A stretch of DNA of 64,000 bases, from the IMG/VR virus record IMGVR_UViG_3300021400_001239, positions 3,188 through 67,187 of that record, one strand, 5' to 3'. Made by a program: the position numbers and the translations under genes. The notes below the pieces were generated by a model. That model made no database searches. It worked only from the letters and a program-made list of their open reading frames with translations, and was not told where the DNA came from. The number at the start of each line of letters is the position of its first letter. Position 1 is the first letter of the stretch. The DNA comes from a virus (taxonomy: Duplodnaviria > Caudoviricetes). Of the stretch, positions 2,822 to 62,619 are shown piece by piece.

Positions 2822-3367
2822 TCAGTCTTCACCATGGTAATCGGCGTACTTATCAGCCCAGCGGCTAGCCTCAAGAGTGATCCTGGCTTCCTTCAGATAT
2901 GCCTTGATCCTCCAATCACCGGTCTTGTCGTCCTGCCACCAACGAGGTCTGATTGTCATGTCGATATTTTCGAAGAACTGACCATCAAGATCACCGGCAG
3001 TATCCTCAAAGATCCTGGTTTCAACACCATTGGCATACGTGTAGATCAGTACAGGAGGAATGTTTGGCGGTGTGTTGAAGTTAACAGACACCTGCATCCT
3101 GTACTCGATCTCATTGCGGAGATTCAGGTTTACTTTGACAGAATCCCAGCCAGCGTTGATCAGCTGAGGTACCAGAGTCTCATCATTGACATACACCTTG
3201 ATGTTCCAACCGTCATCGCGCATAGCGGCTGCCAGATCCGGATCATCGATCATCCATACAAAGTTACGATCCCCTTCTTTGTTATACCTGCTGCCTCGTC
3301 CTGCAAAGTTTCTGAATGTGATGGTGGCGTGTTCAACGTCGATCGGGAATACATTGTGTTTTTCCAT
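2822..3367 (-). CDS. single-stranded DNA-binding protein (putative)
   Basis: FRNFAG...GDRNF N-terminus, aromatic/beta-rich body, acidic tail, next to the polymerase. Confidence 0.6.
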   Translation of the reverse strand: MEKHNVFPIDVEHATITFRNFAGRGSRYNKEGDRNFVWMIDDPDLAAAMRDDGWNIKVYVNDETLVPQLINAGWDSVKVNLNLRNEIEYRMQVSVNFNTPPNIPPVLIYTYANGVETRIFEDTAGDLDGQFFENIDMTIRPRWWQDDKTGDWRIKAYLKEARITLEASRWADKYADYHGED

Positions 3368-3690
3368 TTTTGTTCTCCTTTTTATTTAAAATATTTTAGT
3401 GCAAACAAAAGAGGGCCTGCGTTTGCAGAACCCTCCGGTTAACTATTCCTTATTTAGTTTTGAAAAAGCCTTCTTCATTATACTTCATTAATTCTCTGTG
3501 AAGCAGATCAATACCTTCTCCTACGCCAATCCGATGTCCCTCTTCATAGCCCTTAGCCAACCCATATTCATAAGCCGCATAGATCCATGAAAGGTACGCA
3601 CCGGCAAGCATAACGTAGCCGAATATTTTACCCGCTTTAGTATTAATGTTTTCCATAATAAATACCTCCTTTCATAAAGGAGATTGTTTA

Positions 3691-6600
3691 TTATGCGGTA
3701 AACGGTACCTCTTCGTCGCTATCTTCTGGAATGTTCATGTAACGCGAAAGCGGATCATCCGATACAAAGTTATCGAAGTCACCATATTTCGAGATCGCTG
3801 CTTTAGCCTCGTCTACAAGATTCTCATAGTAAGACGTGTCAACAAATTCCTGCATACCGCATCGTTCGATCAGTTCGGTTTCCAACCATCTGTAAGGCGT
3901 ACCGTCTCGTCTTTTCGACCCAGCTACAGCATAGTATTTGTCGTTCTGTTTTCTCACAAGAAGCCCACCACCATGGCCGCTAAGTATCGGGCAGAACAGT
4001 CCAACTCGTCCTATGAACTGGTAACTATGACCTTCAGAAATTATTTCAGCCAATCGTTCATTGCTTACACCAGACATACCAGGATTAAGTTTTCTCTTTC
4101 CACGATCTTCTCTATTTTTTGCGTTCCACAAACGATTTTGCAGTTCTTTCTCTTCCATGGTAACGTCAGGTAAACTCTCGTTCATGTCGAGGTAAATAGC
4201 TCCTTTTGTTACGGTCTTCGTCTCGCAAAGATCTCCAAAACGAATATCCTCATGACTAAAGAGCGTCTTAAACACATACGGAATCTGGAACTGAGTACCA
4301 GTCGCAGTCCATGGATACGTGTGTTTCTTGAAGTGTTTCTTGATACCCGACAATACATAACCATATCGACGCATACTCTCTTCAGGAGTTATGTATTTAG
4401 CTATGTATACAGCATGGTTAACAAGACACATCCGTTCATAAGTAGCCTCATGATCAAAGGTATAACCATACTTCTGGCCGAACTCTTTGACAAACTCGAT
4501 AATTTCATTAGTAGCGTCAGGGATCTTAATGGAATCGGTCTTGATGTGAACAACTTTGAAACCTCTAGCCATAACCTCGTCCTGGAGAGTCCTCATGAAT
4601 AAAGCACCACGCAGAGCGATGATGTTGTTCTTATCTCTCGGATCAGCAAGAGGATTTTCAAATGTAGCAGCAGCAATACCATAGGTACTATTGAGAACCA
4701 GCTTAAGCGCTGCCTGCAGGTTATCTGCATCTTCTTCGTTCGTAAGATACTTGGCTAGTTTACCATCGAGCATCTTAGACGCCCTTTCAAAGTCGTGTTC
4801 CTTAATGGCAATACGAGCATCACGAATTTCCTCGTACGTCTTAGTGTTATCACCAAATTTATGAAGTCTAATAATAGACTCAGGATGCATACTATTAACG
4901 TCCAACAAAGCTACATTAAACCATTGACCTTCTTCGGCGTAAACATATCCACCATAACCGACATCAGTTCCGCGATACATGTTGTGACGTTTCTTATCCT
5001 CGCCCCATACGTTCTCGTATCCAGGGAACTCGTTAATAACATCTGAATGGAAGTCGCTTTCCGTACCATCAGAATTATACATTTTACCCGTGGCCAGATC
5101 GGTATAGACATGATTTGGATTCTTGTCGTCACCAACCAGAATCTTTGTGATGTGCTGTCTGTTAGTATGGTTGACTGTAAGACCAGACAGTTCGGCAAGG
5201 AGTTCTCGTACTTTGAAGTCGGCCTGGTTGTGATCGAATACCGCTTCTGTCGCAATAACATCATTTGCACAATACTCAGCAAGCTCTGCCCAGCGTTCTT
5301 CAGGTACAGGTTCATCCCATGGCAAACCGAACTCCTGATGGTGAATCCCGAGTTCAATCTCCCACTTTTTAAGACCTTGTTTCTTTGCACAGAAATCATA
5401 CACGTCGGCGTAGCTCATATTCCAAGCCTCACCAAATTGCACAAGAGGAGTGCCGTTAATAATATCCTGCGAAAGATTATACAGTCCTTCAGCGCTGTAA
5501 CCCATGCTAGCAGCCCAGGTAATGTGATTATCGTAGCTTCTGTTGTTGAATCCCACCAACCTGTTTTCCATGATCTCAAAGATCTGATTCGGCGTCGGGT
5601 TAATCCATTTATAAACCTGTTTGTCTTTGCCTTGAAACTTCCAACACAGCACATTTACATTTGGAAGAACCTCCCAGTCGAAGAAAACGATCGGTTTTTT
5701 CATATAGTCACCATACTCGTCGTCTTCGTATGTCTGTGGCGTGTCGTTTTCACAATCCTTTGATGCGAAGTGCATTTCCTGAACGAGCTGCTGACAGTAT
5801 CTTGAGTTGTTTGTACTGCCAGAAGCAAACGCAAACACGTCTTTACGCATATCACGCACGTCATAATGAAGATCTGATTCGTATGCGTCATCGAGAATCT
5901 TCTTGATAAAGTCAATCGATGATTTAGTAGAGGGGTGAATCTCCTTTGCTATATTTCGCGCTATCTGTTCGCGTAAACTCTTTTCACTTTTTATCTGCTT
6001 CTCGCTTACCATGGTTTTGACCTCCTTTTTTGGTAAGCTGGGACCCGGATTAAGCGTTGCTATCGGTAAGTTGTTACACTTTGTAAGTTTCCGTCTCAAT
6101 GGTAGTTTGCCAGTGAATACCTTGATCTCTACGTGCTCAGCATACAGGTTGGCCAATTCTGTTGGATCACCGGTATAATAATAATGAAGATGAATACCTT
6201 CACCGCTCTTACTCAGTTCACCATACGTCTCTGGCCAGGTACTAGCCGCTTCGATGTTCTTAGCAAGGCACTTTTTACCATCGCTATCCGGAATATCAAA
6301 GTCGATTACAATGTATTTGACATCTAAGTCTTGCGTAAGTACCATGTGGACTCGTGTCGGATCGATATCGCACAACTTCGACTTAACACTGTCCCAACCA
6401 ATAAGCGGCGTCCCTTTGTCTGTTGTGTACTGCGCTCGACAATTAGCGAATAACTCATCGAACACATTTTTTTCACCATGATGATCCTCAAAGTTCAACC
6501 ACCCTAGGTCAGTTTCTTCCGGTTCCTCTTTTTTAGTTTCAAACTTATCCTCTTTGAACCCTTTGTAATAAGTAGAAGGTCTTGTACCATCATCCAGTAA

Positions 6601-13161: not shown

Positions 13162-13241
13162 GAGAAAGAAGACGTAGGAATCGAACCTGCAATCTCTATT
13201 GTTTCCAATAGCGCTCTTCCATTGAGCTAGTCTTCTTTCTC
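13162..13241 (-). ncRNA. tRNA-like RNA (cloverleaf with abnormal anticodon loop, no CCA)
   Basis: Acceptor AGAAGAC/GTCTTCT (extends to 12 bp), D arm GCTC-AATGGAA-GAGC, stem CTATT/AATAG with 6-nt loop GGAAAC, T arm GCAGG-TTCGATT-CCTAC. Confidence 0.65.
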
Positions 13242-13261
13242 ATAATACTGGTTGTAAATGC

Positions 13262-13580
13262 TGCGCATACATCGCTTCGCAATGCCGCTGCATCACCATG
13301 TCATAGCACAACAGTACTGCACAATGCCTTAGCACCACAGGACCCTGCCTAACCATGCCTTTGCTACACACCTCGCCTCTATGCGTTGCCTTAGCCTAGC
13401 CACACAGCACATTACCTTGCCTTAGCCATACCGGACTTTGCTATACCTTAGCAGCTCAAGACTGAACATAGCCATCGCTATACTTTACTTTTCCTTACCT
13501 TCGCTAGACTTGACCATGCCTTCGCTTTACAAAACAGTATGCTGCCTTTCCATAGCTATACCTCACAATGCCTTCGCAAA
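13262..13580 (-). repeat. non-coding tandem array of about 12 units, each 1 nt plus 3-6 NGY-NN pentamers
   Basis: Unit lengths 26,26,21,26,26,26,31,31,31,26,16 (all 5n+1); junction consensus NGCDA^AGGYA; no ORF of 60 aa or more covers it. Confidence 0.85.
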
Positions 13581-14192
13581 TCAGTCTTTCTCACCAAGCA
13601 CCTCGTAGTGGAATCTGCCCCATCCGGCGTTGCGCCACTGACCAAGACCTTTGTAGATGCCATAATCAAGCCATTCTCTCACAACAGGCTCGTACTGGTC
13701 AGGAAATGTCAGTGTGCACTCGAAGGAAGATCCCTTGGAAATAGTCTCCGAATTGGCAAGGCAGATTCTCTCACCCTGAGCGGTCTGTGCTCTAAGAGGT
13801 CTCTGCATGTTGCCGATCTTGCCATCGAAATCGATAGGAATACGACGAGGAAAGACAAAAATGCATCCGTCAATGATCTTCTTGAACGCCTTGATTTTGC
13901 AGGACTCCTTGCTGATATCTTCACCCTTCATCCTCTGAAGAGCCGAGCAGGAATCCTTGAAGAAACCTTTGATCTGGTAATCCAGGATACAAGGTGTACC
14001 ATCAGCAGTACGAGGAAACACGGTCATAGTTTTCTCCTCGTACTCAGTAGCGCCCATAGCCTCGATCTCTTCCTTCATCGTCTTCGCGTCCGGCGCATTG
14101 CTGGCGATGAACTTTGAGTAGAGCTCCGGATCAGCAGGCTGAGAGCCAAGAACCTTTTCATCAAACGTAATCCTAATTTCGAGATGCTTCAT
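13581..14192 (-). CDS. stand-alone Cas7/Csm3-like RAMP-superfamily protein
   Basis: N-terminal strand LEIRITFDEKVLGS, TPCILDYQIKGFFKD (cf. Csm3 PxIPGSSxKG), C-terminal Gly-rich loop GLGQWRNAGWGRF; RBS AAAGGAG. Confidence 0.75.
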   Translation of the reverse strand: MKHLEIRITFDEKVLGSQPADPELYSKFIASNAPDAKTMKEEIEAMGATEYEEKTMTVFPRTADGTPCILDYQIKGFFKDSCSALQRMKGEDISKESCKIKAFKKIIDGCIFVFPRRIPIDFDGKIGNMQRPLRAQTAQGERICLANSETISKGSSFECTLTFPDQYEPVVREWLDYGIYKGLGQWRNAGWGRFHYEVLGEKD

Positions 14193-14483: not shown

Positions 14484-14956
14484 TATACTTTGTCTTATCC
14501 TCCAGCATTATCCGATGGACGCGCTCGTCCAGATCTTCATCTCGTTTAACGGACGCAATAATACCAATTACACAGCAGATTGCGCCGACAATCTCACTGC
14601 CAAGTTCAACAACATCCCACTTCTTCATTTTATTCTCCTTCAGTGAATCTGCAGAAGTCCTGCAATCAATAATCCAGCCATAAGAAACACATGTGCGGGT
14701 CCCATATTAATCCTCCTTTTTCAAAAACAAAAAAGAGAACCGCCAAACGATTTTGTTCAGCGGTTCCCACCTTCACTTGGTTTCTGCTTTTTCTTTGTGT
14801 CTGGCCTGGTAATCACGATCCGCCTGCACGATCTTGATTACCTGCACCGTCGCGCTCAAGATCACTGCAGCAATTGCCGCAATCGCCAGACCGCTCAATC
14901 CTAATATCATGAGCAGATCCTCCTTTCCATTCAAGGAGCTGTTTAATCTGCGTGGT

Positions 14957-15250
14957 CTAACCGACAATGTCTCTTGCCGTGAACTTGAGATAGCAAACAA
15001 ACGGATTTGCAGGGTTATTAATTACTTTAACGTTTATCTTGTCGTCCATCCTTAGATCCCATCCCCAACGGTATGAAAAACTTTTAACGTTAGTACAGTG
15101 AAAGACTCGCACCACTTCGTTCAAAGAGATCTGACCATATACTTTGAGCATGTCCGTTGCGTGGTTTAGAGCACACATAAACTCTAAGAGCGCTAAGTCC
15201 TTGTTTGAATTTTTATAATAAGGAAGTACAATTGTGAACTTTTTATCCAT
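14957..15250 (-). CDS. hypothetical protein resembling the C-terminal domain of the DUF6353-like paralogs
   Basis: ISLNEV...WGWD motif; RBS GGAGG. Confidence 0.5.
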   Translation of the reverse strand: MDKKFTIVLPYYKNSNKDLALLEFMCALNHATDMLKVYGQISLNEVVRVFHCTNVKSFSYRWGWDLRMDDKINVKVINNPANPFVCYLKFTARDIVG

Positions 15251-15315
15251 GGCGTATCCTCCAAAAAGAAAACGGGAAGCCCCCGCAACATTTGCTGCGA
15301 GAGCCTCCCACTGGA

Positions 15316-15630
15316 TTATTTCTTCTCGTCCTCCTTCTCTTCCGGTTCCTTGTCCTTGTCTTCCTGAATCCGGTTGATGTTGTTCTTGGCCAGATCGACC
15401 AAAGCATTCACGTAGTCGTTCATGTCGCCTTCAAAGTAGATCTTCACGATGGCCTGGTCTGCTCCGTCCACGGCAGCGACGTCATCCACAATACGGATGT
15501 CGTGCTTGTCGTATTTCGAACGCAGGCACTTGACCACATCGATCCAATCCGCCTCAAACACTCGGATGAAAAACTCCTTCTTGTCGTCAATCTGTTCGCT
15601 CTTCTCAACCTTCTTACCAAAAAGCTTCAT
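15316..15630 (-). CDS. hypothetical protein
   Basis: RBS AAAGGAG before MKLFGKK, downstream of the promoter motif at 15674, terminator downstream. Confidence 0.6.
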   Translation of the reverse strand: MKLFGKKVEKSEQIDDKKEFFIRVFEADWIDVVKCLRSKYDKHDIRIVDDVAAVDGADQAIVKIYFEGDMNDYVNALVDLAKNNINRIQEDKDKEPEEKEDEKK

Positions 15631-52986: not shown

Positions 52987-53367
52987 TTAATGTGTACCAA
53001 AAAATCGTGGCAAAATGGCAACTTTGAAAGGAAAAACTTTTATATTTTTTTTTAATTTTTTAAAAAGTTTTAAAAAAGTTTTTGCCATTTTGCCATAATT
53101 ATTGGTACACATTAATTCAAAGCCCAAAAATAGCCCAAAAATGCCCAAAAATGGCCTTTTTTACCCCAAAATCAGCCATTTTTGAGAATTAATGTGTACC
53201 AAAAAATCAAAAAAGTTGCTAATTTTATGGCAAAACTTGCAAAAAGTTTTTGCCATAAACTTGACAAATTGCCAAAAAATGCACAAATTACCGAATTTTT
53301 GGTACACATTAAATCGAAAACAGAATTTTTGTGTACCAAAAAATACCGAATTATTGGTACACATTAA
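52987..53367. repeat. AT-rich non-coding region with TTAATGTGTACCAA iterons in both orientations
   Basis: Direct copies at 52987 and 53189; inverted copies at 53102, 53299 and 53354; partial copy at 53330. Confidence 0.85.
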
Positions 53368-53377
53368 ATACCAAACG

Positions 53378-60669: not shown

Positions 60670-62619
60670 ATTAATCTCCTTTCTCTTCAAGCGCCTCAAT
60701 AGCCATCACGAAAGCTTCAGAAGCACAACAAATATAAACATTCTCTGCGATTTCCCTACTTGCATAATACGGACAAGTCGTTTCGCAGGTATTCTGATAC
60801 ATCTCGTGCTCTCTAGGCAGATACGACCTCATACAGGCGGCTGCTTCTGCTTTAGTCATTTCCCCCTCCTAAAAATAGTGCGATTATCGGTCCTATCCCT
60901 ATAAGCGTAAATAACTTCGTCGACAAACATAGAAAAATATTGTTCAAAGTATTCTTTAAAGACGTGGCTTGGTCCTTTAAATTCAAGATTAAATAAAGCG
61001 GAGTCGAATTGGACACAAATTTCATTATTTCTATCAATAGTGCTAATAAGCATATTAGTGTTATTAAGTTTAGTCATTCCATATCCTCCTTATTTATCGA
61101 GATCTACGACGTTTTCCAGATAAACCTCTCAGGATAGTCCACAAGTGTCATATCAGCATACATCTCGGCGAAGCATTCTGCCTGACCCTCAGCATCGTAG
61201 ACGATCCCACGAGCAATATCCTGAAGTATCTTACTACGGTACTTGTTTGCATACATACCGTTCAGTTCGTTGAGTTTTTGATTTTTACTAGCCAGATCCA
61301 TATTCGCTTCAAGAAGAGTTGCGTTGGATCTCTCCAAAACATCATTACGTTCCTGAAGGTCTTTAATGTGCGCAAATGTGACCGACTCAGAAAGTTTCTC
61401 GTCGCATTCTCTAAAAGCTGTATGGATTGGCGATGCTGCAAACGGCGAAATAGTAATGGTATTTGCTACAACGGTGTCATAAAGTTCCTGCAGTGCATCA
61501 TTCTTCAGTTTCATTTGTTACTCCTCCTTATTTATCGAAAATATCAAACCTGACATGCTCAACCATCCTCCAGAACTTGGCGTTCCATCTTCTTTCGGTG
61601 CAATACTGAATGAGATCCAGAATTGATGTACAAGCTGATTGCGGAAACCATCTATACAGAAACTTCTCCCAAAGAATATCCATCATCACTCTTCCTCCGA
61701 TTCGGTTGCGTTAAGAACTTGGTTAATATCAATACTCTGGATCGAATATGTGTGCGTTATGGTTTCCATATATTGCTCTGTTTCGAACTCGAATATGATT
61801 TCCCCATCGTCGCAAATAATTTTTTCAATCGACTTTGACAAAGTAAAGCCCCTGTACTTGTAGTCATTGGCTTTGTTCGCCTCTTTGGTATATTGATCCA
61901 TAATCACGGCTTCAGCAGATTCAGTAGAGTCAAAAACCCCAACGACTTCGTCTCTATCCCATGAGTCTTCGTAACTCAAATCGTTACACATATGAAGCGT
62001 CACCAAATATAACATCACTTATCCTCCTTCCCACAATCTGCACACTGATTCTCGCAGGTCACAACCCTTTCAACATGCGGTTTACTGTTTGCATCAAATG
62101 AACCATAGAGCATACAAATAGGGCGATACTTATCACAGTTTTTGCAAGATTTTTTGGGCATTAGGTCTCCTTTCTTATCCGTACTGGAAAAACAAAACGG
62201 GAAGGCCATGTATAGTCGTCTCGAACCGCTACACAAGCCTTCCCTTAATTATCAGACCCATTTACTTTAGCCTCCCTTTCATTATTAGTAGATCGGTCTC
62301 CATAATACGGGCTGTAAATTCTGCGTAAAAACAAAAGACTCCCTGCAAATATCGTTTTGATACTCACAGAGAGTCTTATTTCAACTTCTGACCCACTCCC
62401 ATCCGAGGTGGATGTTATCCTCTGACGCAATCTCATAGAGTGTCCAGAGACCTTCCTCCTTCGGAGCCGTAAATGTCAGTCCGGAATAACCAGATTCGAC
62501 AACAGTTCCGGGCTGTAAATTCTCCCACTCGTCTACTGTAATTCGTCTTTCCATATTTAACCTCCTATAAAAATGAGTCGGACACTATTATCCATAAAGG
62601 AGATTGTTATTTCTGCGTA

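Follow-up and report, generated by a model that had tools for sequence, protein, structure and literature searches.

The phage locus analysed here is very probably a VIPR-type RNA-guided system in which a lone vipr gene is followed directly by a staggered vrRNA array. It lies in a stretch of 64,000 nt (hereafter the window) taken from a virus record of 67,187 bp, and the host of this phage of ~67 kb probably belongs to the gut Clostridia. The array is strand-specific, unstructured and non-coding, and each of its pentamers has a single fixed G. VIPR is a newly described class of RNA-guided DNA recognition, with which phages bind the DNA of rivals, and a proposed forerunner of CRISPR RAMP effectors, first described in preprints of 2026 (bioRxiv 10.64898/2026.04.26.720920 and 10.64898/2026.04.26.720927). 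In the accessible text of the former, Vipr is a phage-encoded RAMP of ~20 kDa with a single RRM, vrRNAs consist of 9-16 YNNGG repeats and a 3' tail, and their NN dinucleotides pair with double-stranded DNA such that every third target base is skipped. The accessible parts of both preprints agree that GGY is held by the protein and NN pairs with DNA. Seven VIPR types with the repeat variants NNNGG, YNNNG and NNNNG are distinguished there, stand-alone vipr genes are listed, and staggered arrays of abutting vrRNAs with a 1-nt offset are drawn as separately processed (accessible text of 10.64898/2026.04.26.720920, fig. S18 for the staggered arrays). The sRNA-seq confirmation given in the same text covers hammerhead-interspersed arrays and single-vrRNA systems, not staggered arrays. 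Non-canonical clusters (WGT/NN, TGH/NN) appear in the accessible part of 10.64898/2026.10.21.760802.

The array and the adjoining gene

The features of the locus, in ascending coordinates, are as follows.

13164-13237, minus strand: tRNA-like gene
13262-13303, minus strand: degenerate 3' end of the array, with period-5 G down to ~13269 and decay beyond (HMM and sequence)
13304-13573, minus strand: regular part of the vrRNA-like array, ten units of 5n+1 nt with 52 pentamers (exact parse)
13304-13329, minus strand: unit 10, 26 nt
13330-13360, minus strand: unit 9, 31 nt
13361-13391, minus strand: unit 8, 31 nt
13392-13422, minus strand: unit 7, 31 nt
13423-13448, minus strand: unit 6, 26 nt
13449-13474, minus strand: unit 5, 26 nt
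13475-13500, minus strand: unit 4, 26 nt
13501-13521, minus strand: unit 3, 21 nt
13522-13547, minus strand: unit 2, 26 nt
13548-13573, minus strand: unit 1, 26 nt
13574-13580, minus strand: leader of 7 nt between the vipr stop codon (13581-13583) and unit 1 (sequence)
13581-14192, minus strand: vipr-like gene, 203 aa, single-RRM Cas7-like RAMP (fold and profile alignment)

The unit structure had been proposed in a first-pass annotation, and its parse proved exact: the ten units form one contiguous minus-strand substring, and each consists of one extra nucleotide followed by four to six NGY-NN pentamers. A recount likewise reproduced its hand counts of a middle G in 51 and of NGY in 46 of the 52 triplets, of which just 20 are canonical GGY. 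Its statement that the NN positions vary freely needs a correction; they are not fully free, as AA, AT and TA together account for 28 of the 52 dinucleotides and the final NN of each unit (TA or GA) is part of a conserved junction. The suggested autocorrelation test for a period of 5 gave a lag-5 value for G of +0.50 (z = 8.7; maximum of 0.20 among 5000 dinucleotide-preserving shuffles), and the later peaks drift to 11, 16, 21, 26 and 31, the pattern that +1 slips would produce. When segments of 319 nt were scored along both strands of the 64 kb, the best ones all overlapped the array and nothing else came near, and a pentamer HMM recovered a single long array within the window (13269-13585, minus strand). 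Tandem Repeats Finder gave no repeat at all in the window, being blind to the array since only one base in five is fixed. No CRISPR-like repeat array was found in the window either.

The array RNA folds no better than its shuffles (fold energy z = +0.47), and thus the tract is unstructured. The possibility that it encodes a translated peptide had been raised in the same annotation as one of several observations that would speak against a guide array; no credible ORF exists on the minus strand between the 203-aa ORF and the tRNA-like gene. No sigma-70-like site was detected on this strand between the vipr-like gene and the array, leaving the leader without a separate promoter. Rfam assigned no family to the array under gathering or E-value thresholds, and its sole match was the neighbouring tRNA-like gene just past the array (46 bits). 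ARAGORN labels the latter 'tRNA-???' with a 2-base anticodon, meaning that either the loop has 6 nt or the stem is extended and capped by GAAA. A link between tRNA and array was rejected, as a scan of 60 loci yielded three tRNAs, all upstream of the gene and none beside the array. The tRNA-like gene is preceded by the motif TTTACAACCAGTATTATG at 13241-13258, which recurs only at 62301-62318 (two mismatches). Elsewhere in the window, an intergenic segment (53282-53376, plus strand) carries a pair of direct repeats of 40 nt, with 85% identity and at a distance of 55 nt, that read CA.AAATTACCGAAT..TTGGTACACATTAAAT... and are possibly an operator or promoter pair.

The 203-aa protein could not be placed in any family of Pfam, PHROG, NCBIfam or PADLOC, and a blastn search of the locus against the INPHARED phages gave no match. 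Its AlphaFold model (pLDDT 87.8 from a 60-sequence alignment) had type VII Cas7 and type III Csm3 as best Foldseek matches (E = 5e-9), and VIA-align placed it on Csm3 with Z = 13.7 over 155-165 residues, the closest solved folds reaching Z = 12-13.7. The family profile matched type VII Cas7 among the PDB sequences (E = 9e-6), through the C-terminal glycine-rich loop. A thumb beta-hairpin spans approximately residues 126-151, and the C-terminal G-loop GLGQWRNAGWGRF occupies residues 180-192. Judged by the modelled fold, the protein is a lone, single-domain Cas7-like RAMP.

A connection to the experimentally tested type II Vipr of Escherichia phage SUSP1 emerged from profile comparison. Of the 9 contact residues that 10.64898/2026.04.26.720927 names by number, 8 are present at those positions in the product of AVU07_agp039 of SUSP1 (NC_028808), which identifies this product as the published Vipr. 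While tblastn alone did not reach SUSP1 from the window protein, hhalign aligned the 60-sequence family profile to SUSP1 Vipr over 173 columns (probability 77.5%, E = 1.9e-5), with GxG(D/Q)WR..GRF common to both and the G-loops in correspondence (GVGDWRP-RFGRF in SUSP1 Vipr and GLGQWRNAGWGRF in the window protein). The kinship suggested by these alignments is remote and moderately supported. In the published structure, H17 and D177 read G1 of the repeat, R138 and W178 read G2, and R179 together with further residues reads Y3 (10.64898/2026.04.26.720927). By alignment, W178 and R179 correspond to W186, which is invariant in the family, and R187 of the window protein, and the G1 contacts H17 and D177 are replaced by S17 and Q185. 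The replaced G1 contacts and the retained tryptophan and arginine would fit an array in which the second G alone is fixed. The exchanges of Asp to Gln and His to Ser at the putative G1 pocket also amount to a concrete structure-function prediction.

Conservation and grammar across related loci

The pairing of gene and array is conserved far beyond the window. Of 153 related loci from phages or MAGs, 148 have a same-strand array of period-5 G adjoining the homologous gene, namely 79 of 80 IMG/VR loci whose homologs share 54-87% identity (array length 164-811 nt) and 69 of 73 loci from genomes and MAGs. The MAG loci derive mostly from Oscillospiraceae, Lachnospiraceae and other Clostridia of human and animal guts and extend as far as Planctomycetota, at 41% identity. 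In most relatives the array starts within ~10-30 nt of the stop codon, and in the viral loci usually within a few bases of it, though it occasionally lies upstream. Where related loci have an array, the one beside the gene almost always carries its fixed G on the gene's coding strand. In the 80 related viral loci, vipr alone is common to all and none of the window's 11 neighbouring ORFs turns up again, and even the locus whose protein is 87% identical to that of the window (L001) lacks any shared neighbouring ORF. Since no neighbour recurs, gene and array travel together as a self-contained module: a mobile two-part unit without accessory gene, present in hundreds of phages. The family of the 203-aa protein comprises at least 7,929 clusters at 90% and at least 1,666 at 50% identity, found in gut and rumen phage contigs and in metagenome-assembled bins mostly labelled Clostridia.

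Several members of the family depart from the common arrangement. Some loci (L144 and L149) carry a second array upstream of the gene on the opposite strand, suggestive of divergent transcription, and some proteins (P0148 with 458 aa and P0170 with 432 aa) are twice as long as their relatives and contain two matched stretches, as in a tandem-fused Vipr. Hydrogenobaculum phage 1 (KP282676.1) possesses a 687-nt NNNG[T/A] array on the reverse strand (14763-15449; 3090-3776 in our locus L156) with frequent +1 slips, directly downstream of a 256-aa homolog annotated as hypothetical (ALG96927.1). The staggered architecture thus extends to a phage whose host is a thermophilic member of the Aquificae. 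This homolog has Gly at the Asp position of the G1 contact, which would agree with the single fixed G of its NNNG[T/A] array.

The unit structure is shared across the clade. Internal pentamers of 138 distinct arrays read N N N G(.94) C(.48)/A(.34), with an information content of 0.05-0.20 at the three N positions and of 0.05 at position 2, the G1 of GGY. Phase slips in 67 arrays comprise 700 insertions versus 29 deletions and are nearly all +1; the mean period of these arrays is 5.13 nt. Between successive +1 slips there are five, six or seven pentamers in 159, 252 and 121 cases, with six as the peak. The 1533 unit boundaries of the 138 arrays share the junction logo G(.99) C(.84) / A(.60) / A(.78) N G(.91) G(.98) C/A, so that in the clade logo only the opening pentamer of a unit retains the two Gs of canonical GGY. 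The clade comprises ~1,400 distinct units. Arrays turn over unit by unit between close relatives: two successive units are identical between the window and L001, a few more match in part, and the remainder differ. Among near-identical units, substitutions are similarly frequent at positions 0, 1, 2 and 4 and two to three times rarer at the fixed G. In one array (L015, 1100-1745) a 15-nt block, ATGGA-AAGGC-CAAGC, occurs in almost four perfect copies, as if a guide segment had been duplicated recently.

The first-pass annotation had interpreted the interleaving of constant and variable bases as a discontinuous guide code. Both the adjoining Cas7-like RAMP, homologous to SUSP1 Vipr, and the retention of protein and array side by side across the related loci support this idea, which also agrees with the noncontiguous guide mechanism of VIPR as set out in the accessible text of the two preprints (10.64898/2026.04.26.720920 and 10.64898/2026.04.26.720927).

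Proposed guide production, target specificity and rival readings

By analogy with the type II system and from the sequence itself, the array would be transcribed together with vipr as its 3' extension, considering the gap of 7 nt from stop codon to unit 1 and the lack of a sigma-70-like site on that strand. One Vipr protomer might then occupy each pentamer, with the G and, more weakly, the following C, T or A held in the pocket of G-loop and thumb. The variable bases would pair with a gapped double-stranded DNA sequence of a competing phage or another mobile element, which would then be silenced. The junction (..GC / N / A-W-G-G-Y) may serve as a cut site in the transcript or as a start of assembly. 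Cutting at the junctions would release about ten guides of 21-31 nt, each bound by four to six protomers. Published Vipr forms a right-handed filament with one protomer per repeat and six subunits per turn (10.64898/2026.04.26.720927), and such guides would span roughly one turn of this SUSP1 filament; the six-pentamer peak coincides with the six-per-turn geometry, which may or may not be meaningful. Processing at the extra nucleotide, as suggested in the first-pass annotation, would fit both the conservation of the junction and the staggered arrays in the accessible text of 10.64898/2026.04.26.720920.

The search for targets bears directly on how such guides are read. Under ten reading rules, the guides matched ~1 Mb of related loci and the phage's own genome no more often than reversed or shuffled guides did, the units being too short for power, and two complete candidate target phages showed no excess over these controls either. 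Under the published NN rule a single unit specifies just 8-12 nt, and under any skip rule each unit has a site with at most one mismatch within the 67 kb of the phage itself, which is the chance level. Applied per unit, the published rule therefore looks too unspecific, and guides this short imply either that more bases are read (position 2 being free), that units cooperate, or that they are not separated. Exact contiguous-triplet scans of IMG/VR with two patterns returned 1 and 0 matches, again at chance level. A 14-base pattern with 1-nt skips, derived from a 7-pentamer unit widely shared by relatives, had at least 119 matches in IMG/VR, as did its reversed control (at least 119). One cluster of matches falls in frame, with the skipped base at the wobble position, in a gene for a 1,528-aa MuF_C/LPD38 polyvalent protein of gut phages. 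The site at 2153-2172 of L165 (IMGVR_UViG_3300045988_144974), with its homologs in L170, L174, L188 and others, is probably a chance match, given the equally abundant reversed control and the failure of other guides to converge there. We thus treat the polyvalent-protein gene as a chance candidate and not as a target, since other guides of the same arrays do not converge on those phages.

Short guides could be reconciled with specificity if the RNP is of the VIPR type and its rule differs from the published one, with the array left uncut to act as one or a few long guides with bulged extra nucleotides, or with three bases read per pentamer. We regard this as possible, yet improbable. The shortness of single units under the NN rule speaks for it, as do the replaced G1-contacting residues and a position 2 that is as variable as NN in both the information content and the substitutions of near-identical units. 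On the other hand, conservation of the junctions far exceeds what a passive bulge would require, the unit-wise turnover between relatives suggests separate modules, and the accessible text of 10.64898/2026.04.26.720920 draws staggered arrays as separately processed vrRNAs, all of which speak against it, as do the exact contiguous-triplet scans of IMG/VR with their chance-level counts. A further proposal, which we hold to be rather doubtful, is a second VIPR code with one clamped G, three free bases and short guides cut from the vipr 3' UTR, where the single clamped G would follow from the replacement of the His and Asp that read G1. If true, it would entail one-turn particles of about six protomers, cut at GC/N/AWGG in the fashion of a CRISPR array.

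Other readings dispense with targets altogether. The array RNA might be a scaffold or decoy coated by the Cas7-like protein, its variable bases holding no target information, and such a particle could, e.g., soak up components of host type III or VII CRISPR systems or protect the neighbouring transcript. Target searches without excess and variable positions that are A-rich and not uniform are in line with this proposal. However, the window protein is homologous to one for which programmable guiding by such RNAs was demonstrated (accessible text of 10.64898/2026.04.26.720920), and the arrays diversify unit by unit around a fixed G, the pattern expected of a guide repertoire; both points make the proposal quite improbable. 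We give even less credence to an array acting as double-stranded DNA, be it as origin iterons, a packaging site or a protein-binding array with a period of ~5.1-5.2 bp, half a helical turn. The mean period over the 67 arrays indeed approximates half a turn of B-DNA, but the fold of the partner protein is that of an RNA-binding RAMP, and the signal was dropped given that the array is strand-specific, with G on the coding strand in nearly all array loci, usually fused to the stop codon, and that its slips are confined to discrete conserved junctions instead of being scattered through it. A staggered vrRNA array serving a lone Vipr remains our preferred reading.

Relation to known systems

The locus is a further example of the known VIPR class and adds no new principle. 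It belongs to a very large, unannotated clade of lone-vipr systems whose architecture (lone vipr, a single fixed G, units of about six pentamers and a conserved junction) is mentioned in the accessible text of the preprints. What this clade raises is the directly testable question of how short guides with a single G reach specificity.

A period of ~5 nt is also known from the trp leader RNA of Bacillus, in which 11 G/UAG triplets spaced 2-3 nt apart are bound by TRAP, which forms a closed 11-mer ring, acts in the regulation of attenuation and has no guide function. The likeness, an oligomer reading one fixed triplet per ~5 nt across unconstrained spacers, is an analogy only. A ring-binding RNA of this kind was an early idea for the array and was discarded; the fold of TRAP is unrelated to the Cas7-like RAMP of the window. 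Class 1 Cas7 proteins (Csm3 of type III-A and Cas7 of type VII), the closest solved folds, resemble the proposed RNP in that one protomer binds per RNA repeat and a thumb flips bases out periodically. However, CRISPR Cas7 proteins act with a 6-nt period on a contiguous spacer and need Cas5/Cas6/Cas10 or Cas14 partners as well as a CRISPR array, none of which is present at the window locus. With no repeat-spacer array, a lone RAMP among unconserved neighbours and a period of 5 instead of 6, the locus does not belong to class 1 CRISPR-Cas.

The closest counterpart is the VIPR system of SUSP1. Both comprise a small single-RRM RAMP, encoded by the phage and equipped with thumb and G-loop, and, on the same strand, an adjoining intergenic pentamer array with fixed G-containing and variable positions, and both lack a CRISPR array or other cas genes. 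Run on SUSP1, our pentamer HMM recovered the four published vrRNAs, one upstream and three downstream, with 13-16 NNGGT pentamers and no slips. These are separate vrRNAs with flanking sequence, whereas the window carries one continuous array of ten units with four to six pentamers. Each SUSP1 vrRNA has a 3' tail, invariant and structured in the type II architecture, and the system includes vap1, vap being the accessory gene of a two-gene operon, while the window lacks tails and a conserved accessory gene; conversely, the extra nucleotide at each unit boundary and the fusion of the array to the vipr stop codon are found in the window and not in SUSP1. The repeats differ likewise, with canonical GGY in the type II system of SUSP1 and one fixed G in the window (NNNG[C/A] in the clade). 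This shortfall of GGY argues against type II and not against VIPR, given the NNNGG, YNNNG and NNNNG forms accepted in the accessible text of 10.64898/2026.04.26.720920. Compared with their description in that text, the window array resembles the staggered vrRNA arrays in being contiguous, in its 1-nt offset between units and in its relaxed consensus.
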